Source of the DNA: Vairimorpha necatrix
Lineage: Eukaryota
DNA length: 64,000 nt
NCBI GenBank assembly: GCA_036630325.1
Contig: CP142732.1
Location: 682,001 to 746,000 of the forward strand
Direction of reading: 5' to 3'
In this document: positions 3 through 63,692 of the stretch, piece by piece
How the letters are laid out: the number at the start of each line of letters is the position of its first letter
Position numbering within the stretch: the stretch's first letter is position 1
Program-made: the position numbers and the translations under genes
Notes under the pieces: generated by a model
What the model was told of the DNA's origin: nothing
The model's database searches: none
The model's input: the letters and a program-made list of their open reading frames with translations, nothing else

Positions 3-3000
3 GTGGATGATACACGTCATAAAGAAATTTCGCGTGGAGATTATGTGGATGTAAAAGCGATTAGCTGCAAGGACCACGATAGAAAGATTTGGACTTCTAA
101 AAGGAACAAAGAAAAGAGATGTTTTATTTGCGGAAAGAAAGGCCATACAGTAGCACGGTGTAAATTCAATAGTTACCGTAGAGATATTAGCGAATCCAAG
201 AAACCCCAAGAAGAAGAAGGATAAAATAAGAAGATGGATGTAAAGGAATTTATTTATAATTACTCTGTTGCAAAGGTCAAGGATGATAGGACTACGCTCA
301 AAGAAGCTCACTGAATAATTCGGAAGTTAAATTTAAAGCGCTCATCGATACTGGTGCTGATATAAATCTAATTAGACCAGAGATTTTGCCAAATAAAACC
401 GTTGTTAATCGTTCTAAACAACAGCTTAGGGCAGCCAATGGATCGAAAATAAGGATCATTGGAGAAACAGTAGTTAAAATAAAAATTGAGGGAATGATAT
501 TTGAAGATAAATTCATTATTACTAGGGATATCACAATTCCCTGCATTATAGGAAAGGGGTTGCTCAACATGTACAAGATAAATTTAAAATTTGGAAATAA
601 CAAAATGGAAATTGAATCTGGACTCTTGGCAAAGGGAAAAGCCATAGGATATCATAAAATTATCACAAAGGATGATAACCCAATACTATTTCAATTATAC
701 AAATTGGGGGAGCAAAAGAGGATATTGCGTCCCAAATAGTGAAAGAGTATCTAAAACGTGGAATAGTTAGACATAGTGTAAGCGCATGGAGAAGCCCGAT
801 AATTATAGTCCCTAAAAAGAATGGAGACCACAGATTATGTGTGGATTATCGAAGATTAAATGATGCGACTATTAGAGATGCGTATCCAATGCCTAGAGTA
901 GAAGAGTTCATCAACGCTTTAGAGGGAGCAACATACTTTACTAAATTAGATGCTGAATCGGGCTATCACCAAATAGATATGGCGCCTTGTGATATTGAGA
1001 AGACAGCCTTTGCCTGTAGAGAAGGCTTATTTGAATTTACCAAAATGCCATTTGGACTTGTTAATGGCCCAGCTACATTTCAGCGGGTGATGAATGGTAT
1101 ATTGAGGGAATTTTTGTTTAAGTTTGTTGTAGTATACATGGATGATATACTAATCTATAGTAAAACTGAAGAAGATCATAAGAGAGATGTTCAAATGGTA
1201 CTAGAAAAGCTCAAGTCGGTAGGGCTTAAACTTAATAAGGAGAAATGCGAATTTAATAAGACCGAATTAAAAATTTTAGGTCATGTAATATCAAAAGAGG
1301 GAATAAGTGTGGACGAAGAAAGAGTTAGGAGCATTCAACAGTTACCAATTCCTAAAAGTAAGAAGAAATTACAATCTTTGTTGGGGCTGTATAATTATTG
1401 CTCTAAATTTATTAAAAACAGCCATAAAGTGGTTAGCCCACTATTCGATATAATAAGACTCAAGAATGAGGACGCTGATATTTTTTGGAAAAATGCAGAG
1501 AATGATGCAAAATACTGTAAGGCAATCGAAGAGGTAAAACAGGCAATGAAGAGAACAGCTTTATTGACAATTCCAAATTTAAAGGATAAATTTATATTGA
1601 CTACGGATGCATCGAATGAGGGAAGTGGGGCAACATTGGCTCAGATGGTCGGAGGAAAAGAAAAGATTATTTCTTATTACAGCTCTTTACACTCCAAGAC
1701 AGAAAAAAACTATTCTACTACTGAGCAAGAATTGCTAGCAGTTATAAAATCGATTCAAAACTTCAGGGAATATTTATTATTGGGGAAATTTACGCTAAAA
1801 ACGGATCATCAAGCTTTAAAATATTTGTTTAAGTCTAGGAATGTAAAAGCTAGGTTGGCTAGATGGTCATTACTGCTACAAGAATATGATTTCGACATTG
1901 AATATATTACAGGACCATCAAAACATACAGATCACCTAAGCAGAGATTTTTAAAACAGGAGGAGATAGTTTCAGAAATAAGTTCAATACAAAGGAAAATA
2001 GTTAAAAAAGAAAGGACAATAGTGCTATTAAAGTTTTACCATGATTTATTAGGGCATGGATCAAAACAAAATATGAAATATAATATTGGTCGAAAATTTA
2101 CTTGGAAGAATATGAGTAGAGACATAGAAAATTATGTAGATAATTGTGAAATTTGTCAAAAAGAAAAACCTCAGAGAAAATTTAGAGATATTATACCATT
2201 AGTAACAAAGACAATAGGAGAAATTTGGGAAGTAGACATAGTAGGGCCCTTGAGAGAAAGCGAGCAAGGATATAAATTTTTATTGACAATGATTGATCAC
2301 TTTTCGAAAATTGCAGAGGTGGTGCCGATTTATACAAAAGATATGAATACGGTTATTTATCTGGTAGATAAACATATAGTCAGGAAGTATGGTATTCCAA
2401 AGGCAATTCTATCTGATAATGGTAAAGAATTCAAAAATAATATCTGTGAGGAATATGCGAAATCCAAAAAATTCATCTGGAAATATGGTTCCCCTTATAA
2501 ACCTACAACCACGGGGCTTGTTGAGAGGTTTAACAGGACAATAGCCATAAAATTAAGGAAGGTTACAGAATTTGGGAAATTTGATTGGGCGAAATGTGTC
2601 CCTAAAGTAGTCAGAGCCTATATGCAATCATATCATAGGGCTATAGGGTGTGCACCAATAGAACTCTTAACAGGAATAGTTCCAAATAAGATAGATATAC
2701 AGGAAGGAATGCATCTAACAAAGGATAAGAAAGAGTTTCAGGAGCAGGCGATTAAGAACTTGGAAGTTTACAGACAAGAATATGACACGGGTAAACAAGC
2801 TAATTCTGTTGATAAAGAGGCCATTAAGGTGGGAGATAGAGTTTGGTATTATTTAATTTTACCGTTTAGAGGAAAACTCGAACCAAAATGGGAAGGAAAA
2901 GGAGTGGTAGTAGATAAAAAATTTCATTCATATAAAGTTTTATTAGATGATGGAAAGACTGTTACAGCAAGCCGAAATCATGTTAAGCTTTTAAAGGAGG

Positions 3001-3005
3001 GGTAG
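3..3005 (+). pseudogene. gag-pol polyprotein split into four ORF pieces (3-224 gag, ~290-739 protease, 739-1953 RT/RNase H, ~1955-3005 integrase)
   Basis: Domains are consecutive but in different frames, with shifts near 230, 720 and 1950. Confidence 0.85.
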
Positions 3006-3115: not shown

Positions 3116-4161
3116 GTATATATGCTATTTTATTAAAAGTCCAAAGTCCACATATTGTAGTATCTTTCTTGTTATTTTTATCTGATATATTGTCTTTTAA
3201 AAAATTAAACTATTTAATAATGCTTTTTTGTTGCCACTAGCAATGCTTAAAAAGCATAAAACTTTTTTATAAATATAAATTAAAAAAACATTATGTTGTA
3301 TATCCTACAATAACCTACATTTATTTTGAGTTAAAATGCAAATTAAAATTTATTGCGGGGTTTCATAGTAAATATTACTGTTTGGTGCAGTGCAAGTTAA
3401 AATACTTACTTTTTGTATTTAAAAACTCAATATTATTTTGAGTCTGAAAAGGACATTTCCAGATATTAATAAATTAATAATTTAAAATTTTCTAAAATGC
3501 TCTAATACTTCACAAAATAATCTATAAACAGGATGCTAAAACCTTATGTAAAAGATTTGCTATATTTTATATTCTTAATATGTCTTATTTAGCTATAATT
3601 AGATATGAATTTATTTTGAATACAGAGTTTTTAATTTAGATACTTTATCATTACATTTATATTCCGTGAAATTATATTCTTATATTTATAGGCGAAAAAT
3701 ACGCCATTTTACTCTCCATTACTCAATACCAAGGCGGAGAATGCCTATAGAATAGTAGGCGCTACTTCATTTTCTTGCCCCCCCCCCTAAAAAAAACATA
3801 CATAAAAAGATACAAAATCGTGTTATTTTTCAAATCTAAACATTTTTTTTTTTTGAGGGGGGCAAGAAAATGAAGTTAAGGTATTTTTTGTCGATTTGAG
3901 ATTTTTTAAATGCCTCCTTCAGATTCCTCATTAAGGGGTTAAAAAAATTTAATTTTTTAATCCTTAATAAGAAATTTAAAGGAAGCTATTCGGGAGCTAA
4001 ATATCTGCGAAGTTGCTGCTTTAGGCACAATGAAGCAGCAATTGATTTTTTTTTAAATAATGGTCTTCTAAAAAGATCGATTGCTTGCAGACATTGTTCG
4101 ACATCAGAACGAACTGTTCTTATGAACATTAATGGATGTTCCGGCTAAATTGACGGTAAAG

Positions 4162-4431
4162 TGTCATGTCCTCAAAACCATGACATCTGTGTTTTACTGT
4201 GTTAAAACTTAAATCAGTAAAACACTGCCCCGAACGAATAGTCTAAGGCGGAGATCTCTAACGATCGGACATGAAACGTTGTGTTTCATAAATAAATATA
4301 AATAGTCCAAAAAAGTTAGAAGACACCGAGCATGAAGAGTAACTTTAATAACAAATCAAATAAAAAGAAATATAATACAAATATTTTAGAAATGTATTTA
4401 AAAAACGGAGATATTACTCCGGTTCATGTCA
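4162..4431 (+). repeat. 5' LTR (270 bp)
   Basis: Direct repeat of 6708-6977. Confidence 0.95.
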
Positions 4432-5252
4432 TTTTGAATTCAAAGACATTAAATGAACAAAACGAAAAACGAAATAACGAAGATGACTATATACAAGTCA
4501 AAATCAAAGTTCCAGACTCGGACCTGGAATTTACGAAGAAATTAAAAATAATAAAAAACATCGAAAAATTCGATTTCATTCCTTGGTTTAAGGTATTTGA
4601 AGAAATAGCCACACAGAACAAATGGAATGCTGAACAAGGCATCATGATACTACGAAATTTAATTACTGATCGACGCCTAGAAGCGGATATTTTCATTACA
4701 GATGCAGCAACAACCAAAAGAAACTTAATTAAACATATTTTTGAGCAAGATGCTAAAGAAATGTTGCAAGAAGCCTTTAAGGTAAAACAAATAGATTTTC
4801 TTTTTATAGAAAACTATTATGAAAAGATTTACAACAAGATAAGTATCTATAGCGCTTATTACGAAATAAGCAAATCGGAATTTAACAGACATTTAAGCGA
4901 ATGCTTTTATCAAGGGTTAGGAAGAAACTCTACGTTTGAAATAATAAAACATAACTTAGGCGAGAACGTCTTAAATGCTTATAATCACCTAAAAAATATT
5001 GAGAAAATGATTCGAAAGAAAGCAGAAACTAAGAAAATAAACAAGGTGTCTAATGACGAGCCAGTATATCAAGAAAGAGAAGGATCATACAGTAAAAAGT
5101 TTTCAAACAAGACGAATAACCCAAGATCTTCGTATATAAATAAATGGTGTTCTATACACAAAACACTAGCCACGACACCAAAGACTGTTATTACAATAAA
5201 GACCGACAAAATGAAAATAAGAAGAAAGAAACGAGAGAAAATCTTAAGATAA
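4332..5252 (+). CDS. Gag-like protein; frameshifts into the PR-IN frame near 5160
   Basis: First ORF of the LTR element, ATG lies inside the LTR; ends in the first half of a zinc knuckle (WCSIH). Confidence 0.7.
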   Translation: MKSNFNNKSNKKKYNTNILEMYLKNGDITPVHVILNSKTLNEQNEKRNNEDDYIQVKIKVPDSDLEFTKKLKIIKNIEKFDFIPWFKVFEEIATQNKWNAEQGIMILRNLITDRRLEADIFITDAATTKRNLIKHIFEQDAKEMLQEAFKVKQIDFLFIENYYEKIYNKISIYSAYYEISKSEFNRHLSECFYQGLGRNSTFEIIKHNLGENVLNAYNHLKNIEKMIRKKAETKKINKVSNDEPVYQEREGSYSKKFSNKTNNPRSSYINKWCSIHKTLATTPKTVITIKTDKMKIRRKKREKILR

Positions 5253-6697
5253 TCAAAGAACCAATAAAAGTAATAAATGGAATTGAATTAGAAGGTTCAA
5301 TTGAAAAGAAAGAAACCAGATTTTTAATCGATACTACAGGTGCCACAAGAAATTTTATTAGTAATAAAAAGATCAAAGAATTGAAATTATCACCCATTGA
5401 AGATGTGGAAATCCAAACAAAATTTGCCAATGAGCAAAAAGAAATAACTAACAAAACAGTACTTGTTAGAATAACATTAAAGAATCTAATGAAAGAAAAA
5501 TACGTAAGATTTTATATATTAAAAAACAACAGCGATGATGTAATATTAGGAAATGAATTCCTAGTCGCAAATGAAGCAATAGTAAATTACAAAGAAGGAA
5601 CAATTTATGTAGGAAGTGAGAGATTGAAATTTCTACATAACGACGAATGTTGCGAATTAGACGCAATGTTATTTGAGAAAATGAATGTGTGCAAACAGGT
5701 AGATGAATGTGCATTAAAAACAGAAAATAAAAAGAACTTTAAAAAAGATGAAAAAGAAAGAATTTATATTGACAGAAAAATGACTAAAGAATTTATTAAA
5801 TTTGTCCACGAATTGTCGGGACATTGCGGGCAAGTAATCATGTATTTAAACTTAAAAAGATGGTACAACATCATAAACATTAGAACAGTTATCCGCAAGA
5901 TATGCAATCAGTGTATCGTATGTAAAGAAAACAAGGATTTTAAACAACAGAATCTAGAAAGAAATAAAATAGATAGCAGTGCACCATTTGAAATAATAAG
6001 CACAGATATTTTTGGTCCTTTTCTCCTGGAGGAGTTTGAGGGCGACTCTCTAAACCATAAGGGTTATATCTTGACCATAACCGATGTGTTTTCGAGATTC
6101 ACGAGAATTTGGTTTGGTGAGAAGTTTAGGAGTGAGGAAGTTATTATGTGTTTAAACGAATGGAGTGATGATTTTGCGAAGCCTAAAGCGCTAATTTCGG
6201 ACAATGGTCCGCAATATAAAAGTAAAAAAATGAAAGATTATACTAATAAAATACAAATCGAACATCGTCTAATACCGATATATTACCCCCAAAGCAATGG
6301 AATTTCAGAACGTATAAATCAAACAATTGCAGAAGTGCTGAGAATGAATATAGGAAAGAATATAAAACACATTATTATGCAAATTGAACATCGGATAAAT
6401 AATAATGTTAATACCACACTGGGAATTGCGCCTAGAGAAGCAATTTATAAGAATAGTTTTTATGACATTGAGAAAAGGGTTAATGTGCCATTTTTGCGAA
6501 ACATACCTGCAGTTGAAGTGAACTATAAGCGACGTATCGCAGTAAATGACATTGTATACTTAAAAAATTATAGCAATAATAAACTCGAGCGGAAATACTA
6601 TGGGCCGTTTAAAGTTATGGAAATCGGTAAGAAAGGAAGTTGGGTTCGACTTAAAGACATGCCCAACTGGGTTCATATTAAACAGTTGAAGCTGTAG
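5144..6697 (+). CDS. Aspartic protease fused directly to integrase
   Basis: FLIDTTGATRNFIS and ILGNEFL protease motifs, then HELSGH...CNQCIVC, STDIFGP, ISDNGPQY, SNGISER and YYGPF; no YxDD motif. Confidence 0.88.
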   Translation: MVFYTQNTSHDTKDCYYNKDRQNENKKKETRENLKIIKEPIKVINGIELEGSIEKKETRFLIDTTGATRNFISNKKIKELKLSPIEDVEIQTKFANEQKEITNKTVLVRITLKNLMKEKYVRFYILKNNSDDVILGNEFLVANEAIVNYKEGTIYVGSERLKFLHNDECCELDAMLFEKMNVCKQVDECALKTENKKNFKKDEKERIYIDRKMTKEFIKFVHELSGHCGQVIMYLNLKRWYNIINIRTVIRKICNQCIVCKENKDFKQQNLERNKIDSSAPFEIISTDIFGPFLLEEFEGDSLNHKGYILTITDVFSRFTRIWFGEKFRSEEVIMCLNEWSDDFAKPKALISDNGPQYKSKKMKDYTNKIQIEHRLIPIYYPQSNGISERINQTIAEVLRMNIGKNIKHIIMQIEHRINNNVNTTLGIAPREAIYKNSFYDIEKRVNVPFLRNIPAVEVNYKRRIAVNDIVYLKNYSNNKLERKYYGPFKVMEIGKKGSWVRLKDMPNWVHIKQLKL

Positions 6698-6707
6698 GGG
6701 GGCAGAC

Positions 6708-6977
6708 TGTCATGTCCTCAAAACCATGACATCTGTGTTTTACTGTGTTAAAACTTTAATCAGTAAAACACTGCCCCGAACGAATAGTCTAAGGCGGTGA
6801 TCTCTAACGATCGGACATGAAACGTTGTGTTTCATAAATAAATATAAATAGTCCAAAAAAGTTAGAAGACACCGAGCATGAAGAGTAACTTTAATAACAA
6901 ATCAAATAAAAAGAAATATAATACAAATATTTTAGAAATGTATTTAAAAAACGGAGATATTACTCCGGTTCATGTCA
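6708..6977 (+). repeat. 3' LTR (270 bp)
   Basis: Direct repeat of 4162-4431. Confidence 0.95.
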
Positions 6978-6982
6978 TAAAG

Positions 6983-7707
6983 CTTATCGTTGTGTTAATA
7001 AAAAGTGTAGTTCGAAGAGCTCACTTAAAAATGGTACGATGTTTAAAGGGATAAGCGTTTAATTTCACAAAATTCTTAGAGCATTCTATGGCTGGGTATT
7101 AAATTATACTACTTACCAAGCAATATATCTTTGCAAAATATGTGAAAATTCATATATTAAAATCAAGGATACAGTGATGGAAATCATTGCTTCTAAAAGC
7201 GATGATAGCTACCAAAATGGTCGAACTTCTGTTCGTGTACAATTTGATGAAACCGCCATATGCAACGGGGTAATTGTATCCAATCCTTCTTGAACTTTTG
7301 ATTCCATGCCTGGAATTCAATGGATTATAGGCGGCATAGTAGAAGGTAATTGTAGAGAATTTGTTCTTGAATTGCTACCGAATCGACAATCTAGTACTAT
7401 TAAAAACTTTTTTAGACGCAGAGTAAAACGTGGCTCCATTATAATTACTGATGGATACCCTTCATACCCTTCAGCCTCAAGAAATTTTGGGAGTGAACAT
7501 TACATAGTAAATCATTCGCTTGGATTTATAAATGCAGAAGGAGACCACACAAATAATATAGAAAATTTGTGGTCCCATTTGAAAAATGAATATAGATCGA
7601 GAAGTGGGCTTAAATGGCATAGGATAAATTTATTACTAAAAGAATTTGCTTGGAAAAAAGAAATATCAATCATTCTAATAATTATGATCATAAGTGTGTT
7701 TATATAA
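6983..7707 (+). pseudogene. Merlin transposase C-terminal part; N-terminal remnant at ~3990-4161
   Basis: VQFDETA, IITDGYPSY, VNHS and HTNNIENLW motifs; stops and frameshifts upstream of 7306. Confidence 0.88.
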
Positions 7708-8871
7708 AAATTTTAGAACAGTGTAAGTTGGAATAAAAAAAATTTCTTCTAAATAATTTTTTTTTTCTAGGGGGGGGGCAAGAAAATGAAGTAGCGCCGA
7801 ATAGTAGTCTATATCTACAGCATTTCTCGGTCACTTAATTTATACCATGACAAATATTACTATGCTTTTTACAATCAATATACAAGATTTGACGAAGATA
7901 TAAATATTATATTGATGATCTATAAGCAATACAATAAATTTTTTACAAGGAAAATTTTGTGTAATGTCATAAAAGAACCAAACAAATGAATTACAACTGT
8001 TGAAAATGTACAGAAAGACTGTTTGTTATATTTTACATTTCTATAAGAACTAGGCAATTTTGATACTTTACAAGACATTATGTTATTTGAAAAAAAAAAC
8101 AAAATCCCCAAAGTATCATAAAGCCACGGAAACAGTATATTATATGGCCACTAAATGTAATTATATGCTTGCACATGATTATATAAGGCGACACTGATCT
8201 GTATCTTCTTACAGTTGTGTAAGCACATTGAATTATTATGCCTAAAGAATTATAACAACTTAGACCAGTAATAAATAGCTACGAACAATTTAAGATACGA
8301 TTGGGAGTTAAGAATCAATTACAAAATAATGCATAACAAGCCTGTGCACTATTTGATTTAGAAAATTATAAGTCTTAACAAAATCATGCGATAGAAATGA
8401 AAATAAGAATAACCATGACTTTCTACCAACACAGGTAAAACCCCCTAGTTAATCGAAGCATCCTATTACATTTATGTATTTACAAGGGCGGATTGAGATT
8501 ATTTTATCACACCCACGAAGAAGTTTCCTCTTTAATCTCCGACTGAGCATTATACCGAACAAAATTCCCTAAAAAATTTAATCACCACTTGTGTCAAGCA
8601 GACATGGATTTGATAATGTTGACGTAAGATATTTTACATAAGAAGACTAAATTATGCAATTTTCTCTGCCTCATCTTTTAAAAGAGAAGAATAAATTTTC
8701 TCCGTTGAAAATATTGTAGCACACATAGGTTGTTTAAAACAAGAATATTATTTATTCTGATATTTGGTTCTTTAAAATCATTTTTTTTTAGGTTATGTTT
8801 TCACTGGACCACACCTTTGTAAAAAGTATATAAATAATATTTAAGTGTAATCAAATATATTTATTTTTCAT

Positions 8872-15003: not shown

Positions 15004-15076
15004 CACTTCGGGCGGGACTCGAACCCGCAATCTTCTGCTTAGAAGGCAGACGCGTTAGCCATTACGCTACCGAAGC
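15004..15076 (-). tRNA. tRNA-Arg(TCT)
   Basis: Cloverleaf: acceptor GCTTCGG/CCGAAGT, anticodon arm TCTGC-CT TCT AA-GCAGA, T-loop GGTTCGAGTCC, downstream T-run. Confidence 0.96.
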
Positions 15077-39496: not shown

Positions 39497-41104
39497 GGTG
39501 ACCGGAATTTTCGTCCCGGTGGTAGGGGTTAAAAAAATAAAAAAATAAAAAATCTCGGTTTTTTATTTTTTTAACCCCTACCACCGGGACGAAAATTCCG
39601 AAAAAAAAAATAAAAATAAAACTTTAATATTTCAATAATTTCAAAGACAAAATCTAAACCAACCCCTTCATCCACAGTTTTGTTTAAAAAATTAGCTAGC
39701 CGAATCTCTTTTTCAATGTATTTTTGTTTACGTTCAAAAACATGATTTAAAATTGTTTGTTGGATTATCTTGATTCGCACTATATCTTCTTCATCCTTTA
39801 ACTTGCTCACTAATAGATAAAAACTGTATCGACTTGTACCAAATGTGTTTTTAAAGGTATTATGCCAACCTTCAATCGCATTATTAGTTCTTGGAAAATC
39901 TATATCCATTTTATTTCTCGTATGCCACAAATTCGGCGGAAAACGACATCCTAAATCAATATAATTTGTAAAGAAATAGGCATATAACTCAGTCAAGCAT
40001 TCAGGGAAATTTCTGTCTTGTTTTAATTCCAAAAAAGTAGACAATATTTCGTCATATTCAACATATGCAAGTGCCGTAAGAGACAAAACAAATTTTTTCA
40101 CCATAGGTGAACATGTGTAAACAGAAGAAAGTCCTGAACTTTTAACACGTCTATCAATAGCCTGGGCTAAGTGAAAAAGACAACCCGAAATTTGACAATC
40201 CGAGAAAATTATTGAAAATGCTCTTATCGCAGCATACTCAAAATCGGGTTTTATCAACCTTGGGTTGAGCTCTGGAAACCTTCTCTTTAACAATTGAAAC
40301 AAAAAACAATAGGTTTCAAAACTTTTATCTTTTAAAATTGCAAATATAATCGGAAATACATGCGCTTCACGGATAAAACTAATTGTGTAAAGTTGATAAT
40401 ATGGAATTGGAACCACCGTAAAGGTCCCATCCATCGCCCACATGTCATATAGAGCCAGTTTTCCCATAGCTGAATCTGTATAAAAAACTATTATACTGTC
40501 ATTGGGTTTATCACTCCCGCAATTTTCAGGCCCATATCGATACCATTGTTCGCCTGTATGACTGATTAATTAATCAGCACATAAACCCAATGTTTGGTTG
40601 GCGTATGGTTTTGGATTTAAGAAATTTAGCCTAGCTTTCCTTAATATCCTCGCAATAGGCTCAATAGGGCCTATTGCGGCGATTGTTTCTTCACCAGCTC
40701 TTCTTAAGGAAGAAAAAAATGTTTCTAGAAGAATCTTTGCCAGAGATAATTTCCCGTTTCATTTTATCTATTTTATTCTTCCTACAGACCTGTTCAGGAT
40801 TTGGTTCATGATTATGAGGCGAAGAAATAATAAAGGATTCGAGATTATTGACGTAAACAATACTACTAATGGCCTTGGCATTACAGCTTCGTACAATGCA
40901 GCGCCACTTTATAGTAGTATTGTTGATTCTTTTTTTCTCGTAAATATATAGATTTTCATCTATTATTTGGTCCATATTTCTTTTGCTTTTAATGATCCTT
41001 TTTGTCCCGGTCATAGGGGTAAAAAATAAAAAAAGAAAAAAGTTCGTTTTTTTTATTTTTTAATTTTTTTAACCCCTATGACCGGGACGAAAAGACCGGG
41101 TACC
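39497..41104 (-). mobile_element. Mutator-like (MULE) DNA transposon
   Basis: 9-bp TSD GAAAATAAG at 39488-39496 and 41105-41113; imperfect TIRs GGTGACCGGAATTTTCGTCCCGG / GGTACCCGGTCTTTTCGTCCCGG. Confidence 0.92.
39571..41014 (-). pseudogene. MULE transposase (FLYWCH-like zinc finger plus DDE), disrupted
   Basis: WRC...C.A...HNH in 40691-41014; DGTF, DFE, GCLFH and TNNAIEGWH in 39571-40467. Confidence 0.88.
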
Positions 41105-41607
41105 GAAAATAAGTAGGATTTCTCAGCTGTAGGTTTGGAAATGAACATGAGTAAGTCTGCGACTAACTGTATTGACTGTAGCGAAGATGCAGTAATATTA
41201 GAAGGGCATCAAGGATACAAAAACCTTGGAATAACAGAGGATGCCTCTTGTGCTGTCAAAAGAGAGACTTTTGAAAAAGTAATAAATAAGATCCTACAGA
41301 GGGTTAGAAACTGTGCAAGACTCAATTAAATGGTAAGAATATGATTTTAACTATAAACAAGCATGCAATATCAGTAACAAAAATCTTGTAGGACTTCTTA
41401 CAGTCCATTTCATTTTTATAGGCACTTTGTTTCATTTTTATAGGCACTTTGTTTCATTTTTAAAGACACCTTGTTCCATTTTTATAGACACCTTGTTCCA
41501 TTATTTTTTACACCTTATTTAATAATTATAGAACCCTCATTTCATTATGATAGAACCCTTGCTCTAAAATTTATTTTACTTTACTTTATAATTTTCAATC
41601 CTTAAAT

Positions 41608-42716
41608 ATGAGAAACCTAAATGTCAGAGAAGAACTTGAGGAATATCGTACAGAAGAATCATTTGTCGAGATAGAAGATGAAACGCAGTCTTCTACCCCA
41701 ATTAAAACCAGGAAGATGATTACGAGGTCGATAATCGAAAGTTTTCTTTCGTTACTCGACACTGGTATGAAAGTTATTTATATGGAAGTTGCTTTAAATC
41801 TCAGTAAGTCTAACGTCAAACGCCCATATAAAAGATATCTTACGAGAGAATTTACTAACCTTTCAACTTTTAAGAAGGCAGGACAAAAAAAAAGAGTGAA
41901 TCTTTAAAGACATTTTTATGGTTATATATATTATTGCAACGGAAATAGCCTTGATTCCTTGTCTATATCTTTATTATTTATCCGATAAATTGCAAAATGT
42001 AAATTCCACGGGACATTACTTTATGTCAACTGTTTGCAGACTTGTTAAAAAATAAGGGTATAGTTTTAAACCCCCCCCCCCCCCGACCTTGATTCCACTA
42101 AGCAGAAACAGTCCTCAGAACAAGCTGTTAAGGTCTCAATATGCGAGAGTAATAGATATCATATCAAATGATAATTTAAATTTTCTCGAAGAACCCGGTT
42201 TAAATCTGCACCTTAACAGTACTTTTGGTTTTTCTTTAAGAGATACTAAGTGTTGTGTAACAGTCCGAATTCGAAAGGGACTAATGTTTCTTTAATGTAT
42301 GCTATAAGCGTTAAAGGATTATATACGCATAAAACTAAAGTCGAAAGTTTTAAATCGATAGATTTTGTCGAATTCATTAACAATAATGACCTATTTGTGA
42401 GCAAGAGGAAAACAGAGTTATAATATTGGATAACGCATCTATACAAAGAACAGCCGAAGTAGCTGTTGCTCTTAGAAACAAAGGATACACTCTAAAACTT
42501 ATCCCTCCATATTCTCCACAACTAAACCCCGCCGAGGAGTTTTCTAACAGTTTAAAGTCCCAAGTAAAACAGAGACCTAGACCAACAACCACTCCTTTGT
42601 TAATTGATTGTATTGAGGACGTGTTGGACACAGAAGTATTCGTCATAGATGGTTACTTTTCTCATAAGAGAATTTATCGAGAAAGCTCTTGTCAATGCGG
42701 GTTTTTTCTGAATTAA
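41608..42716 (+). pseudogene. Tc1/IS630-type transposase, fragmented
   Basis: LDNASI and PPYSPQLNPAEE motifs; multiple frameshifts. Confidence 0.85.
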
Positions 42717-42861
42717 TGAAATTAAAAATTTTAATTTAAAAACTTCTAAGATGTTTTCATTGTTTGCCATGTAAATATTGATGTTTATATCTTTATCTTT
42801 ATCATTATCTCTTCTTTACGATTCAACTATATAAATAAATTATGAAAAAAATAAAAATAAA

Positions 42862-45800
42862 TGTGATATATTTGTATAATTTCTATCCCCATTATGATAA
42901 ATAAAGACATGGGGGCGATACCGAATCGTCAGTTTACAAGTGTGGACTGTGGTCTAGAGGCCAAAAAGTTAATAAAGGAAGTTAGAAGAATAATGTATAG
43001 GTTGGAGATGGAGGAAGTAGAAATCAGTTTGTGGAAGCAGAGAATATTTATGGAAGGAAGTGAAGAAATAAAAAATTTCATGGTAGAAAGAATTAGTAAA
43101 GAGGACGAATATTATAAAATAATTGAGAAATTAGAGGAGGAAATATGTAGAGAAGAAAGAACTAAAAAAGAAGAAGAAAATAGGAGAGAACTTATGGAGG
43201 TTATAGCTGAGAATGTTAGAGAAACTGTGAGAAAAGAAATTCAAGAGAAAGATTTAGTTTTAAGGAGTACAGTACAAGAAATAAGAAATAATAGGAATTG
43301 TTTTAATTGTGGTAAATTTGGCCATATGGCTAGGAACTGCTATTTAGGAAGGAACAATAATCAGAAAAATAATAAAAAGTTTAATAAGTACTTAAATTTA
43401 GACGAAAACCAAAGTTGTAGTAGCAGTAATGATAATAAAGAATATAAACCAAGTGGAAAGACAAAACGAGTTAAGTTAAAGGAATGTAATAATAGTGATA
43501 GAAGACATAAAGAAAGAATATATGCGAGCAATAAAGAGACGAAAAGAAGATTACTGAAGAGGGAATTTACGTTGGAAGATCTCAAAGCGGAATATGAAGA
43601 AGTTTTTAAACAAGGAGATGAGGTTATAAGTTATTGTACATTAGAGAAGTGTAAGATAGATACTCCAGAGGGTAAGAAGATAGTCAGAAAGGGACAGACG
43701 ATCCCACAGGCTTTGATCAAACAGACTGAGGAATATATTAATGATTTAGAAAATAGAAAAATTATAAGAAGATCGTCTTCGGAATGGCGAAACCCAATAA
43801 TAGCGATACTTAAACCAAGTGGTGAAGTAAGAGTAGTTAGTAATTTTATAGGGTTGAATGATTTAGTCGAGAAAGACCCGTATGAGCTAACGAATATGAG
43901 AGAAATAATAAGAGCTACGCAAGGGTCGATAATATTTACTGTTGTTGATTGCAAAGAAGGATTTTACCATTTTGAAATCGAAGAAAAAGATAAACATAAG
44001 ACGGCGTTTGAATTTAATAAAAAAGTTTACGAATGGAATAGTATGGTGATGGGATACAAAAACTCCCCACAGATACTACAGAGAACGATGAATATGATTT
44101 TTGAAGATTTGCGAGGAAATGGTGTTGAGGTATACATGGACGATATAGTAATACATGCCAACAATAAATGTAAACACGATGAATTAGTAATAGAGGTTAT
44201 AGAAAGAATTAAGAGAAATAAAATGAAATTAAATATTGGGAAAATACAGTTTAGACAAGCGGAAGTAAAATTATTAGGTGTGACGCTGAATGGAATAGAC
44301 ATGACGGCCGACGAAATAAAGAAAAATGAAGCCTTGGAGTATCCGGATCCAAAAACTTTGACGGAATTGAGGAGGTTTCTAGGATTGACTGGGTGGTTCA
44401 GACCATTTATAAAAGATTATGCCGGGCTGACGTTGAAAATGACAGATAGTTTGAAGAAAAATGGCAATTCGTGGAAATTTACGGAAGAGATGAAAGAGGA
44501 ATTTACTAAAATGAAAAATGTTTTAAGAAATATGGGAAGACTAAGATTACCGGACTATAATAAGGAGTTCATACTAAGAACAGACGCTAGCAATTTGAGA
44601 TTGGGTGCGGTGTTACTTCAGAAGAATGAGAATGGGGAATGGGTTGCTATACAATGGGCATCTAAAAAGCTAACACCTACCGAAATAAGATATGGAATAT
44701 CAGAAAAGGAAATGCTTGCGATATATTGGGGCATTGATAAATTTAAATACGAGTTAAGAGGTAGGAAATTCAAGATAGAAACGGATCACAAAGCACTGGT
44801 GGAGATAAGAAATAAACCGTTTTTTTAATAATAACAGAATAAATCGCTTAATCGAGAAGATACAGGAATATGATTTTATCGTTGAATATAAAAAACCTGA
44901 TGAGATGGTGGTAGCAGATGCGTTGAGTCGAATAAATATGGAAGAGGATATTAAAGAAATGAAAAATAAAGAGCGAACAATCAAGCAAACAGAAGGTAAA
45001 TGGAAAGCACATGTTTCTTCCGAGAATGGAAAGCAATATTGGCAATTTGACTCAGGACGTAAAGTTGAAATACCACCTGAGAATATAAGGAGACAATTAA
45101 TCCAAGAATATCATGAAAAAGTAGGCCACAGATGCATGACAAGTGTTTATTATGCAATGAGAGAAGAATACTATTGGCCAGGAGTAAAGAAAGAAATAAA
45201 CGAGGTTATAAAACAGTGTCAGAAATGTCAGATATATAACAGGAAAAATATGGGTGGTTGTGAATTTGTAGATACGTCGAGATACATAGAGAAGGTTGCA
45301 TTAGATTTGATAGACTTTAGAAATTAGAAGAAATATGTTTTAGTTGCTATCGATTATTTTACACGTAGAGTATGGGGAGTAGTTATAAATAACAAGTCAA
45401 GTAATAATGTTGTTGGATTTTTGAAAAGATTATGTGAGCAAGGGAAGAAACCAGAAGAAATTATTACAGATAACGGAAAAGAGTTTATTACGTGGAATTT
45501 AGAAAATTTTGTAGAGATCTCGATATAATACACCGACAAGTAAGTATAGAAGCGCATAGAAGTAACGGAAGAGTAGAGCGTGTTATAGGAACTTTGAGAG
45601 AAAGTATTTTAAAGTCGGATGCGAAAACTTTTGAAGGTAAAGTATATAAAAGTATCGATGTATATAATCAGAGCTATCATACGGGAATAAAATGTACACC
45701 ATTAGAAGCGACTGAAGATAAAACTGGAGACGTAATGCTTGAAAATAGCCCTTTAGGGAAATATTGTAATAGGTTTGGAAAAGGAAAGATCGAAAAATTT

Positions 45801-46079
45801 AGCAAAGGTCAATTGGTAAGAATAGCTAAACGAGAAAATGTGGCAGGTGTTAATAAGTATGAAAAAGGAAGATTTTTGGATACAGGAAAAATTGTTGAAA
45901 AGTGTGGAAAAGATTCTTATATTGTAAAACTTAGTAATGGTAGGCTTGTGAAGAAGAGACATTATGATCTGAAGGGTATGCTTGGGGTAGATGTGAAAAT
46001 TAGATGAGACTAACCGTCTTGAGGGGGGGATGTGATATATTTGTATAATTTCTATACCCCATTATGATAAATAAAGACA
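42862..46079 (+). mobile_element. Compact Ty3/Gypsy element (3218 bp) with 48/49-bp LTRs and no protease
   Basis: LTRs at 42862-42909 and 46031-46079 (TG...CA, one indel), TSD ATAAA, TGG-starting PBS at 42910, PPT GAGGGGGGGA at 46021-46030. Confidence 0.93.
42894..46007 (+). pseudogene. mini-Gag-RT-RNase H-integrase polyprotein, disrupted
   Basis: CFNCGKFGHMARNC, YMDD, TDAS, HHCC, TDNG and SNGRVER motifs; frameshifts near 44825 and 45490 and a stop at 45325-45327. Confidence 0.9.
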
Positions 46080-47925
46080 ATAAATTTTATAACAAGGGGT
46101 CTATAAAAATGAAACGAGGTTTTTATAAAAAATAAATGAGTTGTCTTTTAAAATTTAACAAGGGTTCTATAAAAATAAAATGAGGTGTCTATAATTATGA
46201 AACAAGATGTCTATAAAAATGAAATGGACTGTAAATTAGAACCAATAGATTTCTAAAGTCTCGATTTTGATATCCGACAGTTACTTATTAAGTACCAGGT
46301 CCATCTACGGCCAGCCTGCAAGGAAAGACTATACCTACCTAGATCCGAATTTGGTAGAGGCCTCATAAGTATCGAATATAGAAGCGAAAATATGCTTCTG
46401 AATATTTATAAAACAACAGATGAGTATAGAAATAGCTCACTAAGACGAACAGCGATACTTAAAGTAGAGGCAGAGAACAAATCGCACTTGTTTACAACTA
46501 ACGAGTATATAAAGATTAGGTATAGCTTTGTAGGAGAGATAACCCAGAAGATGCTAATATAATCCCCCAAAAACGCTCTACAACAAAATTGACATAAGGA
46601 CAAACCATGGAAAGTTGTTTAAAGCTAGGAGTAATGATTTAGTAAGCATTAGGGACTCTTCTGACTGGCTGGTTAAGGAAACAATCAGGCCAGATTCGAA
46701 GCAATTTACTGCTATCTACAGAATAGAAATATTTTCTGTTGACAAGTGGGACAATGTCCCCATTGTGGATCTCATAGGAAGACCGTGAATCATTTAGCTA
46801 CCTAGTGTGATCGAATGTTTGGTTTTGATTATATGAAAAGACACAACGAGGTATTTTGTTGCATTTATCTCTTACTATGTATTTATATGGGTTTAAGAAG
46901 GCAAAGAAATACATGAACACTCGGTACAAGAGATCGTGGGAAATGATCGTGCAGAATAAGAGTAGATACGAGAATTTCCACTAATACAAATGTGACCCAT
47001 AATAATCCGGATATTCTTGTATTTGACAAGACGAATAAGAAATTTTAATAGTTGAAGTTGGTATAACCAACCCATATCGACTTATTATAGTCGAGAATGA
47101 AAAACTAAGAAAATATGGACTTCATGCAAATGAACTGGGACTAATACATAAATCTCGGACAAGAATAGTTCCTAATGTAATGACATGAGATGGAGTGGTG
47201 ACCAAATATCACAGAAAGTACATCAGGAAGCTGGAAATCCAACCCTACTTGGAAGCAAACATCCAGTCTATTGTGATTAAGAAAATATTAGAATCCACCT
47301 TGATGGAACGACGACTAGGATACGATCAGCAAGATGCAGGGAAGAAGTAGTGGCTAGAGCTGTAAGCACACTAGAGAATATGGCGACTGTTAAAGAAGTG
47401 GTTTCGGCAAAGGGAAATGGAGCTGAAAAAAGTGAAGTTGGAAAGTATTAATAATTCCACAGAAACCAAAGCCTGTAAAGAGCTGAATCTTATGACGATG
47501 CCGGGGAAAAATGTGCTATGAATATCTAAGCTTAATGATAAATTGGCTCAATAAAACTTTAAAATTTCTAAGTTTTGAATGCTTCTTAGGTAAAAACCCC
47601 AAATATCAATAGCCCTTGAACTCAAAACGGTTATTAAGAAACATAAATTTATTTATTTGATCAATTTATGGTAAATATTAAATGATGTTTTATATATCAT
47701 TGATGAAAATTTATACTTCCAATAATAGCACATATAATTCATCGTTTAATAGAATAAATTGATCTTAAATACTTATTCTCGTAAAAAAAGTACCATATTA
47801 TTATATCAAAATAAAGATTATCTTTATATAGTTCTTTGATGTAGAAATTATTGCAAAAAAAATCAATTTGTATCAGTAATGATACAGCTAGATTATTGCA
47901 AGATCCAAGCTTTACAATGAACAAA

Positions 47926-48775
47926 GGCTGAAGATGCCCAAACACCCCCCCCTCCCCCTCAGAGGGTGTTCACTTTATTTTTTCGAACCCCAAAATTGAA
48001 GTGCAAAATAAAGGAGGAGCAAAGAAGAGACAAAAATTACTAAGCACTTATTACATTAAAAACAAAAAATAAACATACGTTTATGTACAGAATTATATTT
48101 TAATTTAAGTTTGTATATTTATAACAATTGATAAGCAGTTTTTACCCTTCTGATTTATTAGAATTGGGGACCAAAATGCCTTCCTCTGAGGGTGTTCACT
48201 TTATTATTTTGAACCCCAAAAACGAAGTGCAAAATAAAGGAGGAGCAATCATTAGCATTCAAATTACTTGCATCTTTAAACAGTAAAAATACCAAATAAT
48301 TATATATTTGTATACGAAATTTAATTTAAAAAAAGAATATAATCATAAAACTACATAATTTTAAATAACTTGGCATCTTTCAAATTAATTTTTTTGATTT
48401 AACAATCTGTATAGATCGTTGAACATTTATTTAAATTTTCTTATATAAATAATATTTATAATTTTAATTACTGGTTTATTATAAAAGTAGATTTTTGAAG
48501 AAAATCTACTTTTATAATAAACCAGTAATTAAAAAAAAATTTAGAAAAATAAGAAGGGCAAAAAAGATACAACACTTTAAATTATTATTAGAACTACATT
48601 TAAAATTAATTTTTGTATACAAGCATATATTTTTTTGGTATTTTTAATGTAATAAGTACTTAGTAATTTTTTTCTCTTCTTTGCTCCTCCTTTATTTTGC
48701 ACTTCGTTTTGGGGGTTCAAAAAAATAAAGTGAACACCCTCTGAGGGGGGGGGGGGTGTTTCGGATCCTTCCTCC
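47926..48775. mobile_element. Non-coding long-TIR element (MITE/foldback, probably Merlin-mobilised)
   Basis: GG...CC ends, 8-bp TSD TGAACAAA at 47918-47925 and 48776-48783, imperfect TIRs of >130 bp. Confidence 0.85.
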
Positions 48776-56556: not shown

Positions 56557-57179
56557 AATATAAATACAGAATTTTTTATTTTTAGCCCTGTTCTTCGAAA
56601 GTCGAAGCGGAAAATATGCTCAAGAGCAAAAATCAAAATAATAATTTCTAATAAAATATCATAATTACCAAAAATAAATAATTTATCTTTCGTTTTTTTT
56701 ATTATTTCTTCTTACACTTGTTGATCAAGACTTATCTTTATTGCACATTGCAATGTTCTTTAGAGATAAGTCTCGATTTATCTTTATATAAACAATATAA
56801 TATAAAATTTTTACATCTTTTTAACGCATATCATTAACATATATACAATTATGTAAATGTATGATATTTTACTTTTAGACGGAAAATATAATATATCATA
56901 TGAAATGGATGTTTTATAATTATTAAATCTTAAAAAAATATAAGTATTACATATTACAACATTGTTTAGCTATAAAAAATCAATGAAATACAAAAAAAGA
57001 CCAAATTAATCCATATATACTATAAAATAATATGAACCTAACCTAGAATTTGTTTACGATAAAAAAATAAGTAAAAAATGTTTAATATAACTAAAATATA
57101 TTGTAATGACTAAAAATTGAAAGATATTTTCACAAATTTGAGTGGTTTTAAATGCATATTTTAAAGTAATACATTTTTG

Positions 57180-58202
57180 GGCTAAAGTAAGCATTAGCTA
57201 CAAAAAATCGATATAGGGTTTTTTTGTTTTTTTTTGCCCCTTTTTTTTAAAAATGGAGGAAAGAATTCGGACAAGAGAAGAATTGGAGATCATGTATAAT
57301 GATCTAATAATAAAGAAACAAAATAAAAAATGTAGCGTCTGAAATTAAAAAATGAAGCAAAGAGGGGAGCAAAGAAGTCTCATAAGGTGTCCATGGAGCT
57401 CTTGTAAAAACACAATTTCAATTTGGAATGGAACTTTCTTTCAGGAGTCCTCGCTAAATCACATTACAATATTACAAAACTAAATTTATGGATTTTAGGT
57501 TATTCACGTAAGTCCATTTCTCAAGTTTTAGGTTGTACTAAATCTTCTATATCTTCCATTATAAAAAATTTAAAACACATGAGTCTTTATGATAAGTATT
57601 TATCTAGTATAGGGACTATTGGAGGCGATAATACTATAGTGGAAATTGATGAGACTAAGATTGGGAAGAATAAATACAATAGGGGGAAGTTAGTAAAAGG
57701 ATTTTGGTGTTTTGGAATGGTTGAACGTACCATCCAACGTAGAATCATAGTAGTATATATTAAGAAAAGAGACAAAAGAACACTTACTGAATTTCTTTTA
57801 AAATATGTAAGTAGAAGCAGTATTATATATAGCGATATGTGGAGAGCGTATCATTCTTTAAATACAATGTTTAAACAACATCATATGGCTAATCATACAT
57901 TACATTTTAGAGATCCGAATACAGGAGTACATACCAATACCATAGAAAGTATTTGGTTATCTCTAAACCATTCTATACCAAATAGAAACAGATCATAGAA
58001 TAGCACTAAACTTTATTTATTTAGATATATGATCCAAAGAAACTCCACAACTCCAGTGTTTGAAGATTTATTAAAATATTTATTCTAGTTTTTATTTTTG
58101 TTCCTTCCTCATCATTTTCTTTCCTCCATTTTTTAAAAAAAGGGGCAAAAAAAAACAAAAAAACCCTATATCGATTTTTTGTAGCTAATGCTTACTTTAG
58201 CC
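57180..58202 (+). mobile_element. Merlin DNA transposon (second family)
   Basis: ~80-bp TIRs GGCTAAAGTAAGCATTAGCTAC...; 8-bp TSD CATTTTTG at 57172-57179 and 58203-58210. Confidence 0.94.
57253..58088 (+). pseudogene. Merlin (IS1595-type DDE) transposase, disrupted
   Basis: VEIDETK, KYNRG, IYSDMWRAY and HTNTIESIW motifs; stops and frameshifts at both ends. Confidence 0.88.
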
Positions 58203-58859
58203 CATTTTTGAAAAGATTTACAATAATGTTTTATTGAATATTAATCAAATTAGATCTTAATTTGACCTTTTTTAATGCAATGTAGATTTTTGTTTGTTCC
58301 TTTCCGCTCTAGACGCTTCGACTTTCAAAAACAGGAATGAAAGTAAAAAAACTCTGTATTTATACTGACAAGGTGGGGCTAATGTGAAAATTAGCCTACT
58401 GTATTATGAAAGTATTTAAATATGATGTAGATATATGCAAATAGCTAAGAATACATATAAAATAATTCGTTTACAGACCGAATAGTCTTTATTTGATGTC
58501 ATTACTGCTTCTCGGGAAGACAAACACGATCTACGGTTTCAATTTATTTCTTAGTGTAAAAAAGTAGGATTAAACATGACATTATCAACACTCTTACATC
58601 TTATAATAATTTAATTTATTGCATAAAAAAAATATATTAACACAGTTTATTGTATCATTCATATTTTAACCTTTATGTATAAAAAAATTATTTGACTCCA
58701 TTTGCAATACAATATAGTTTTTATTGATACTTGTTATAGAATAATAAAACGTAAGAACAGTTTAAATTTATTTATTAATAAAAAACTTGATTTTTTGCGT
58801 TATTAAAATACAAATTGATCAGAATATTCAATAGGTGTCACATCACAATAATATCTACA

Positions 58860-60617: not shown

Positions 60618-63600
60618 TGTAGGGTTTAGAACCCTTAATAAATAAATGGTTAACATGGCGAACACAAGGATGAACAGGGAAACAAGAGAGTCCCGTAGTC
60701 AAGAGGCTAGAACATTAGAGAAAGAGGCAATTAGGATAGATAAGAGACTAAAGTTAATATTGAAAGTTGAGAAAGTTGAGTGGAAAGATGTTATGGATTT
60801 GGCATCTGCGAACTTGCAGGATTATATTTTTGAAAATTTTTGTGACGGAAGGAGCAGTTGGGAGGAAATTTATAAAGGCTTACAAAAAGGAGCAGAATTT
60901 GAGAGAGAGTCAGAAGAAAGACAAGAAATGATTAAAGAGATTATGGATAAAGTGTTGAAAGAGTTTAGGGAAGAAAGAAAAGAAAATCTTAGGATGTATA
61001 GGAAAAGAAGAGAAATCAGAGAAACTACAAAATGTTTTATATGTAAGAAAGAAGGGCATTACGCTAGAGAATGTCATGAAAGTGTAGCTGGTAGGGAAAA
61101 ATATAAAATTAAAAAGGAACAAGTTTTACAGAAAGAACCAATTATCAACAATGAAGGGAAAAGATGTAAAACAGTAAATAAGTTAGAAAATTTAATTGAA
61201 AAGTATCCGGAAGTTTTTAAAGAATCAGAAGAAAAGATAAAATATCTCACAGGAGAGAAGTGTCCAATAAATACTAAGCAAGGTGAAAAGGTTGTGAAAA
61301 GAGGGCAGAATGTGCCATACTACCTTAGGGTGAAATTTGAGGAGTACTTGAATAAGTTGGAAAATAGAGGGGTTATAAGACGTTCCAAAAGTGAGTGGAG
61401 GAGTCCAATAAGAGCACTTGAAAAACCAAATGGGGACGTAAGATTGGTAAGCAATTTGATGGCGTTAAACGATTTGGTTGACAAGGACCCGTACTCACTA
61501 CCGTTAATTAAGGATATTATGAGAGCCACACAGGGGTCAAAAGTATTTACGGTTATCGACTTAAAAGAAGGGTTTTATCATATTGAGATTGAGGAGCACC
61601 ATAAGCACAAAACAGCATTTGAAGTGAATGGTCGAGTATACGAATGGAATAGTATGGTTATGGGGTTTAAGAATTCGCCTCATATAATGCAGAGAGTAAT
61701 GAACAGAGTTTTAGATGAATTCAGAGGTAAAGGCGTGGAAGTATATATGGATGATATAGTTATTCATGGTAAAGACGTAAGAGTGCATGACGAGTTACTA
61801 GAGAGGGTAATTAAAAAGTTTAAAGAGTGTGGGTTGAGAATAAACCAAACAAAGATACAATACAAAAAAGATGAGGTGATGTTGCTGGGAGTAACAATTA
61901 ATGGGGAGGTCATGGGACCGAATGAGATTAAAAAGCAGGAGACATTGGAATATAGAAAACCTGAGAATGTTAGAGAGTTAAGAAGATTTTTAGGACTAAC
62001 TGGTTGGTTTAGAGACTTTATTCCCAACTATGCGTATAGAACAGTAAGGCTTACTGAGGCTTTAAAGAAAGATGTTAAGTGGAATTGGACGGAGGATATG
62101 GAAAGAGCTTTTGAGGATATGAAGCAAGGCTTGAGAGATATGAAAAAGTTGAAGATTCCGGACGGAAAAAAGCTATTTAGAGTAAGAACTGATGCGTGTG
62201 ATACGGGGATCGGAGCAATTCTATTACAAGAAAATAAAGAGGGTGAGTGGATTCCGATACAATGGGCATCGAAAATGTTGACTCCTACCGAGCGAAGATA
62301 TACGATAAGTGAGAAGGAGATGTTGGCGGTGTTTTTTGGAATAAAGAAGTTTGAAAGTGATTTGAGAGGAAGGAAATTTCATTTGATGACGGATCATAAA
62401 GCATTAGCAGAGATCAGAAATAAGCCATACTTCAATAATAACAGAATAAACAGATGGGTAGAACAGATACAAGAGTTTGACTTTACAATAGAGTATGTGA
62501 AAGGGGAGTTGATGACAGATGCAGATGCGTTAAGTAGGCAGTATGATCAGGTAGAAGTTTCGGATGAACAAAAAGAAAAGGACAACAAGAGAAAAGAAGT
62601 GATCGAAAAACAAATTTTGGGAAAAAAGCAGAAACATATTAAAGAAAAGGACGGTAAACAGTATTGGGAATTTTCCACAGGTGAGGTGAAATAGATATTG
62701 AGCCTAGATAGTAGAGAACATGAAATAACAAGAGTACATGAGGAGTTAAACCATAGAGGTGTCAAAGGCACTTATTATAACATTAAACAAAGATGGTATT
62801 GGCCTGGTATGAAAGATCATATTAATAAGGTAATTAAGAATTGTGAAATATGTGGGATTAACAATAGGAAAAACACAGGAGGATGTGATTTCGTAGTAAC
62901 TAGAAAGAAATTGGAGAAAGTGGCGTTGGATTTAATGGACATAGGTGGAGAGAATAGGTATGTGTTACTGGGTATTGATTACTTTACTAGAAGGTTGTGG
63001 GGTTCGAATTTGAGATGTAAAGAGAGTAGTGAAGTTATAGAGGTATTACAAAAGTGGATAAGGGAAGATGGATTTCCAGAGGAATATGTGACAGACAACG
63101 GAAAAGAGTTTGTAAGTAATAGATTTAAAGAATGGTGTAGTATTAATGATATTAAACATAGGAAAGTGGGCTTAGAAGCTCATAGGAGTAATGGTAGAAT
63201 CGAGAGATGCATCAGAACTATAAGAGAGACATTGATAAAGCAAAATGATGGGAATATTTCTGAAAAGATAGAAAGAGCAATCAAAGGATATAATAATACA
63301 CTACATACAGCAATAAAATGTACGCCGATGGAAGCGTGGAGAGATCAAACTGCTGAAGTTATAATTGAAAATGATGAAAATGGAAAATATGCTGGTCGGT
63401 TCAAGAGAAGACACAGAGAGACATTTACAGTAGGCCAAGAGGTAAGAATCGCTAGGAGAGAAAATTTAGGTACACGTGCGAAAACAGACAAGGGAAGATT
63501 CACGGGACGCGGAAGGATCGTAGCTATAAGTGAAAATGATTCATATATTGTGAGACTACTGGATGGTAAAATTGTTAAAAAGAGGCATTATGATTTGAAA

Positions 63601-63692
63601 GAGATAAGGAAGAGTTGTTTAGAAGATGGAGAGACTACCCGTCTGGAGGGGGGATGTAGGGTTTAGAATCCTTAATAAATAAATGGTTAACA
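60618..63692 (+). mobile_element. Compact Ty3/Gypsy element (3075 bp) with 38-bp LTRs and no protease
   Basis: LTRs at 60618-60655 and 63655-63692 (1 mismatch, TG...CA), TSD TAATA, TGG-starting PBS at 60656, PPT GGAGGGGGGA. Confidence 0.94.
60646..63666 (+). CDS. Single-frame mini-Gag-RT-RNase H-integrase polyprotein with one in-frame TAG at 62692-62694
   Basis: Both ORF pieces are in the same frame; CFICKKEGHYAREC, YMDD, TDAC, HHCC, TDNG and SNGRIER motifs. Confidence 0.88.

Follow-up and report, generated by a model that had tools for sequence, protein, structure and literature searches.

A Ty3/gypsy family of Vairimorpha necatrix that encodes Gag, protease, and integrase and lacks reverse transcriptase

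Is an LTR retrotransposon with a fused protease-integrase frame and no reverse transcriptase (RT) a recent deletion product, or does it belong to an RT-less family maintained by selection? The question is raised by a locus in a 64,000-nucleotide stretch of the V. necatrix genome (contig CP142732.1, positions 682,001 to 746,000 of the forward strand; hereafter, the window), for which a first-pass annotation offered both explanations. Our overall reading, with a probability of about 0.65, is that the element belongs to a “semi-autonomous” Ty3/gypsy Gag-protease-integrase (Gag-PR-IN) family, termed F1, from which RT and RNase H were deleted, which spread again afterward, and which would borrow RT in trans.

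The window element and its family

Re-examination of the sequence confirmed a Ty3/gypsy LTR retrotransposon at window positions 4162 to 6977. Its features are as follows (“plus” is the forward strand).

4157 to 4161, unstranded: 5' target-site duplication (TSD), TAAAG, 5 bp
4162 to 4431, plus: 5' LTR, 270 bp, TG...CA ends; the first codons of the ORF lie inside it, with in-frame ATGs at 4332 and 4392
4433 to 4444, unstranded: 12-nt palindrome where a primer-binding site would lie, predicted to form the tip of a hairpin together with the LTR end (genome survey and folding, z = -3.3)
4320 to 5252, plus: Gag frame, 310 aa stop to stop, departing from the family frame at about 5159 in the window copy only (assigned by identity to L061 Gag)
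5148 to 5188, plus: Gag zinc knuckle, with the pattern C-X2-H-X4-H-X4-C in the sister copies; a frameshift divides it in the window copy
5291 to 5695, plus: aspartic protease and C-terminal extension, catalytic Asp at 5330, extra motif residue in the window copy and L002 (Pfam)
5690 to 5698, plus: short join J2, from the protease-side continuation to the tether ahead of the integrase, without RT or RNase H
5699 to 6697, plus: tether and integrase (HHCC, DD35E, weak SH3-like C terminus), stop at 6695 to 6697 (Pfam)
6696 to 6707, plus: polypurine tract (PPT)
6708 to 6977, plus: 3' LTR, 270 bp, TG...CA ends
6978 to 6982, unstranded: 3' TSD
3753 to 7803, plus: insertion host, a decayed Merlin/IS1595-type DNA transposon with inverted repeats at 3753 to 3796 and 7760 to 7803

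Most of what the annotation had described was found again. The LTRs are nearly identical, with 2 mismatches between them, and the TSD, within the 4 to 6 bp expected of Ty3/gypsy elements, and the PPT are in place. The claimed in-frame fusion of protease and integrase without an RT remnant was also evident, as the ORF at 5144 to 6697 (517 aa) gave Pfam matches to an aspartyl protease (aa 50 to 140), Integrase_H2C2 (aa 209 to 264), and rve (aa 280 to 382), and no match to RVT_1 or RNase H up to E = 1. Compared with L061, the closest element with an open pol, amino acids 361 to 839 of the latter (about 478 aa) are swapped for 11 residues. The integrase motifs read from the sequence are intact, as claimed, with H/H/C/C at 5807/5822/5903/5912 and D/D/E at 6005/6200/6308. 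The host transposon was identified by a DDE_Tnp_IS1595 match for 7294 to 7704 (E = 3e-12).

The claim that the element encodes Gag, protease, and integrase stood for the domains present but had to be amended for the window copy, in which Gag is frameshifted and the protease motif has an extra residue. The Gag frame gave no Pfam match above the cutoff and shares 43 to 47% identity with L061 Gag. The 1-nt frameshift at about 5159, which leaves Gag and PR-IN in two ORFs, is found in this copy only (1/7); it falls within a run of A and could be either a mutation private to this copy or an error of assembly. The protease catalytic motif is DTTG, through a 3-nt insertion, in the window copy and in L002, and DTG in the other five of the seven copies. 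The dominant contigs of sequencing runs X1 and X2 carry neither the frameshift nor the DTTG insertion. Among the runs listed as containing the element none is an RNA run; X3 contains a small share of it and X4 none, and neither was used.

The best three named database matches of the element are RT-bearing polyproteins of Nosema and Vairimorpha. The domain order of the lineage is PR-RT-RH-IN, as seen in the nearest relatives, L061 and L071, and as indicated by a second join (J1, below) that retains an RNase H tail ahead of the integrase. We considered a Copia or Gmr1 order with loss of a downstream RT and rejected it on the order found in these relatives.

A search of the assembly gave 32 matches, among which F1 comprises seven two-LTR copies; each has a 5-bp TSD unlike that of the other six, and the LTRs of a pair differ at 2, 0, 2, 0, 1, 2, and 0 positions. 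No RT was found in any of the seven. The annotation had named several findings that would speak against an RT-less family; two of them, a junction unique to this locus and sister copies that carry RT, fail, since there are seven insertions with seven TSDs and none is RT bearing. A single open ORF is present in four of the seven (791 to 792 aa in L002 to L004 and 702 aa in L007), while L005, with stops in the integrase, and L006 are broken. L007 (L007:1501-4103) has lost another 213 nt, in frame, across the HHCC domain, most of which is gone; its LTRs are identical, its TSD is perfect, and its deletion joint is also present in run X2. F1-like solo LTRs were seen as well, two at 98 to 99% identity and several more at 88 to 91%.

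Three copies (L001, L006, and L007) carry variants that are private to the copy yet present in both of its LTRs, which implies reverse transcription at insertion. The F1 copies are young, separate insertions, RT loss having been followed, very recently, by at least seven further insertions of the deleted forms. By the criterion of an own RT and RNase H the family is not autonomous, both being missing in 7/7 copies, and in the broad sense F1 is a non-autonomous LTR retrotransposon, an essential enzyme being missing while copies multiplied with fresh TSDs. The LTR variants also bear on whether the elements move as DNA through their own integrase, independently of RT, in the manner of Ginger elements. 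The intact integrase and the failure to find a close RT donor would suit such movement, while the direct LTRs, the PPT, the retained Gag, and the regeneration of both LTRs by reverse transcription speak against it, and we consider it highly improbable. Ginger-type integrase DNA transposons have terminal inverted repeats and neither Gag nor direct LTRs; F1 differs from them in having direct LTRs, Gag, and a PPT.

Two joins and a decayed parent

F1 arose by in-frame deletion from an RT-bearing Gag-PR-RT-RH-IN ORF, with two different joins, and all cis signals were left in place. In J1, carried by L006 and L063, the end of the protease region is fused to the RNase H tail at a 7-nt sequence common to both ends. 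In J2, carried by the window copy and L002 to L005 and the source of L007, there are five more protease-side residues than in J1, and the join lands about 20 codons further on. We rejected J2 as a trimmed form of J1, as its last residues match the protease-side continuation of the RT-bearing element L065, which makes it a separate join. Since J2 holds protease-side sequence missing from J1, it needed an RT-bearing template.

The annotation had proposed looking for an RT-containing parent, and the search succeeded in part. L064 is 90% alike to F1 and decayed, with RNase H and part of RT present; judged by its sequence, it is a relic of the RT-bearing F1 parent, and the alternative of an older RT-less copy was rejected on finding those domains. 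The upstream part of this relic was sought in C11:542900-547900 and not found. With L064 itself set aside, its RNase H and RT share only 68 to 80% identity with those of other RT elements (5 and 14 matches), and neither a close RT donor nor a near-identical RT-bearing parent of F1 was found in the assembly.

These joins also allow another account, in which the F1 copies are nothing more than recent deletion products of a near-identical RT-bearing parent that lives on in another haplotype or was lost very recently; both joins would stem from this parent, and the ORFs would be open through youth. J2 needed an RT-bearing template, yet outside the join L006, a J1 copy, shares about 99% identity with the J2 copies. 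This near-identity leaves room for a very recent parent absent from the assembly, which may be incomplete, or for recombination. Against this account, the near-identical parent is missing from the assembly and J1 is also present in L063, which is 7% diverged. Further evidence on both sides comes from other families (below), and on balance we give this account roughly one chance in four.

Assembly collapse is an unlikely source of the RT absence, and an assembly artefact as the explanation of these elements seems to us scarcely credible. Suspicion could rest on the absence of J2 from the joints listed for the run contigs and on the window frameshift, given its A-run. However, J2 is carried intact at five unlinked loci, each with its own TSD, and joints at the J1 position are present in contigs of two studies (X1 and X2, of which X1 may be the source sample).

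Recurrence and selection

We examined 83 loci of this genome, most of them from 88 matches (83 of 777 candidates scored), in a survey that was seeded by integrase and so favours integrase-bearing elements. Among 74 LTR-bounded entries, 59 had an RT match (two solely via a nested element) and 15 had none; integrase was present in 13 of the 15, although the relative frequency of keeping and losing integrase is not inferable from integrase-hit sampling. The RT-less, integrase-bearing set consists of F1, a second family (F2), L119, L115, the inner element at L087, the outer element at L095, and the protease-less L062 and L126, the last together with the outer element at L087. In a quick integrase tree, whose row labels give the locus and not always the element, they fall in separate clades that each adjoin RT-bearing relatives. 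This placement indicates independent origins of integrase-keeping RT-less elements in at least six lineages of this genome.

F2 consists of L100, L114, L124, and a fourth locus known only from a match; the four copies share one join, and the nearest RT-bearing relative of F2 is 69 to 73% alike. L119, which lost RT, and L115, which lost RT and RNase H, are both about 99% like the intact element L113 and form a stepwise series with it (L113, C8:431k; L119, C9:613k; L115, C6:807k); they have a common left breakpoint, and both of their joins are in frame. Gag-integrase forms without a protease are L062 and the pair of L126 (L126:8000-10000) with the outer element at L087, which lack protease, RT, and RNase H and are 95% alike over an in-frame join that retains an RNase H tail. 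Spacing like that of this pair was also noted at C1:72.6-74.6k. The outer element at L095 (L095:1100-2600) is a single-copy RT-less element, 77% like the L078 family. Many 45-bp matches at the end of the L095 element suggest a very short LTR.

Read from translations, eight of the nine distinct joins run on in frame in one or more copies; in the ninth, that of L062, the frame is preserved but a stop falls at the join. The excess over a naive one in three per join is overstated, as homologous-codon switching favours in-frame joins.

Young elements without integrase were found too. L138 (L138:287-2616) has Gag-PR and an integrase tail, L139 (L139:157-2224) has Gag only, and L107 (L107:3333-5759) has Gag-PR and an unassigned tail; L138 and L139 were examined among twenty Gag-PR loci. 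Each has a single ORF that is open to 16 to 26 nt short of the 3' LTR. Several further ORFs of about 650 and about 510 aa are listed besides these three.

Beyond this genome, 5 of 241 database proteins compared had Gag or protease plus integrase matches and no RT match. Protease plus integrase without RT or RNase H was confirmed by Pfam for P0140, P0141, and P0146 (25 to 28% to the elements of this genome) and for P0004, while P0132 has an integrase tail only (local scan).

We then asked what dN/dS among copies, the comparison proposed in the annotation, says of maintenance by selection. The seven F1 copies have 12 synonymous and 20 nonsynonymous variants, giving a pN/pS of 0.41 with an uncorrected p of 0.016, which becomes 0.08 to 0.10 at a kappa of 4, near the observed transition:transversion ratio of 20:11. 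Purifying selection in F1 is thus only suggestive. The comparison of L002 with L063 gave a dN/dS of 0.48 and lost significance at a kappa of 4; this pair differs in the join and, because J2 is a separate join, provides no clean test of selection after RT loss. The F1 integrase against that of relic L064 gave 0.60 (p = 0.11). In F2, dN/dS was 0.32 overall and 0.33 in the integrase (p of at most 0.0034 and at most 0.045, respectively, in all 8 mutation models), with 13 synonymous and 8 nonsynonymous changes on the branch to L100. Purifying selection in this second RT-less family is clear. Recombination with an unseen parent could have imported selected changes into F1 or F2. Of the two explanations posed at the outset, each holds in part: there was a deletion from an RT-bearing parent, with a relic and two joins to attest it, and there is a family of seven, for which maintenance by selection, not shown in F1 itself under transition bias, has a parallel in F2.

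The deletion-derivative account gains from the weak signal in F1 and from L115, L119, and the inner element at L087, which are such derivatives of parents 94 to 99% alike. It loses from F2, where selection is shown and no parent is closer than 69 to 73%.

Selection might also act on something other than the proteins. If these were dispensable, a frame kept open all the way between the 5' LTR and the polypurine tract could be selected for RNA stability or co-translational packaging, with the enzymes supplied in trans. The joins are in frame, the ORFs stop 14 to 26 nt short of the 3' LTR in F1, F2, and the three integrase-less elements, and copies with a damaged protease or HHCC inserted nonetheless. 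In particular, the integrase-less L138 and L139, with an ORF open almost to the 3' LTR, imply that the open frame may be selected for RNA reasons. Conversely, purifying selection on F2 Gag, protease, and integrase is at the amino acid level, and the window copy retains an intact catalytic DDE triad. We judge this account improbable, at about one chance in five, and prefer the reading of a semi-autonomous family.

A possible source of reverse transcriptase and comparison with known systems

No TGG, as expected of a tRNA-type primer site, follows the 5' LTR of the window element, and the 12-nt palindrome stands there instead. Across the survey, a palindrome of at least 10 nt occupies the primer site in 65 of 74 elements, compared to 259 of 5253 internal windows, with the reservation that some of the elements are related copies and thus not independent. 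In 3 of 4 cases folded, the palindrome was predicted to form a hairpin with the LTR end. Over the surveyed loci, these palindromes are 12 to 14 nt long with cores that vary.

The 12-mer of F1 is common to 10 RT-bearing elements, 6 of which have an ORF of 1259 to 1294 aa. Sharing of the palindrome between F1 and RT-bearing elements makes RT borrowing plausible. The Gag proteins of the intact families with this palindrome are only 26 to 28% alike to that of F1, and the L102-type family has the same palindrome and different LTR ends. L061 (L061:2409-6536), with RVT_1 and RT_RNaseH, has LTR ends that resemble those of F1 and a Gag 47 to 54% alike; its LTRs are 99.6% alike, but its gag is frameshifted twice within the first 100 codons. 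As the only close RT-bearing relative of F1 is a dead relic at 90%, the RT is probably supplied in trans by a family less closely related.

From these observations, we propose a mechanism for the semi-autonomous family. Internal in-frame deletions, which probably arose through template switching at short homologies, stripped a single Gag-PR-RT-RH-IN ORF of its RT and RNase H. Each join retains at least one of two processing sites that we take, by analogy to Ty3, to flank RT-RH, so that release of integrase could still be possible. Translation of the RNA would give a Gag-PR-IN polyprotein, which would package that RNA in cis and contribute an integrase suited to the element's own LTR ends; RT and RNase H would be borrowed from a co-packaged RT-bearing family with the same palindromic primer-site hairpin.

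Several observations speak against a simple form of this model. The damaged DTTG motif is common to two inserted copies, and F1 may therefore do without an active protease of its own. L007, without most of its HHCC domain, and L005, with its integrase stops, also count against it. In addition, the LTR ends of F2 are the same as those of the intact, RT-bearing L113, yet F2 retains integrase; an own integrase for own ends therefore cannot be the whole reason for its retention. A broader proposal is that Gag-PR-IN elements form a recurring, selected class that outsources only reverse transcription, keeping its own particle and integrase, outliving its parent family, and taking RT from distant families (Gag 26 to 54% alike) with the same primer-site hairpin. 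This we put forward tentatively, at odds somewhat below one in three.

Among known systems, mouse IAP 1-delta-1 is a non-autonomous, very active element in which an internal deletion created a new in-frame fusion ORF, whose protein helps in cis according to the portions of PMC6466679 and PMC7411935 consulted. F1 resembles it in being non-autonomous with a deletion-made in-frame fusion, and by analogy its protein may help in cis, as the in-frame joins and the selection in F2 indirectly suggest. F1 differs in having lost RT/RNase H alone, with Gag, protease, and integrase left complete; in addition, its close parent is dead, and many lineages show the same build. The plant TR-GAG and semi-autonomous Quinta/Sabrina elements, as far as the excerpts of PMC13570524 and PMC11302176 describe them, keep Gag or Gag/protease, depend on a partner, and lost integrase along with RT, and sugar-beet families with integrase have partly decayed remnants. 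With its complete integrase, F1 is outside this class, into which L138 and L139 fit.

Microsporidian Ty3/gypsy elements have a single ORF that begins inside the LTR, according to PMC4202319, which lists the Anncaliia algerae element “Aalg retro AU” as complete (2584 bp; LTR, 222 bp; ORF, 135 to 2435). Read by eye, retro AU has a protease motif, a short RNase H tail, and an HHCC/DDE integrase one after the other in a single frame, with no room for RT, and it appears to have the same build as F1; also by eye and without an alignment, it looks like another Ty3/gypsy lineage. The passages searched in its main text contain no remark that retro AU is RT-less or non-autonomous, and “nonautonomous” gave zero matches. 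By eye, the primer-site palindrome is also present in two Anncaliia consensus sequences. A similar site, the Conserved Hairpin Site of fungal GalEa Copia elements, consists of a palindrome and hairpin directly after the 5' LTR that replace the tRNA primer site (PMC5445492, in part). The GalEa site is in Copia elements and has 9 bp plus a second complementary motif, whereas the sites in this genome are in Gypsy elements and have 12 to 14 bp with cores that vary; function is unproven in both.

A literature search that covered mostly titles and the beginnings of abstracts returned no description of a Gag-PR-IN class, which subscription journals or Repbase may hold, and the consulted parts of PMC3614468 and PMC10759460 do not mention one. 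We take the build of F1, in which integrase is kept whole, to be a new form of non-autonomous Ty3/gypsy element, with IAP 1-delta-1 and TR-GAG/Quinta as the closest known. In the sections consulted of the papers compared, what non-autonomous LTR elements retain is Gag/protease alone, decayed pol remnants, or nothing at all. A build that keeps integrase, repeatedly in frame and partly under selection, tells cis-acting from shareable retrotransposon functions, and one small genome offers a natural series that leads from full elements through loss of RT, and then of RNase H as well, to forms that have also lost protease. For annotation, RT-based classifiers miss Gag-PR-IN elements, one of which was apparently published as “complete.”

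Elsewhere in the window, there are three other Ty3/gypsy pol regions with RT (679 to 3005, 42867 to 45500, and 60646 to 63666) that are not close to F1. Inverted-repeat pairs at 39497 to 41104, 41398 to 46234, 47944 to 48759, and 57157 to 58225 resemble DNA transposons or MITEs, and an ORF at 39571 to 40569 has, by eye, the look of a Mutator-type transposase. A tRNA-Arg(TCT) gene is located at 15004 to 15076.
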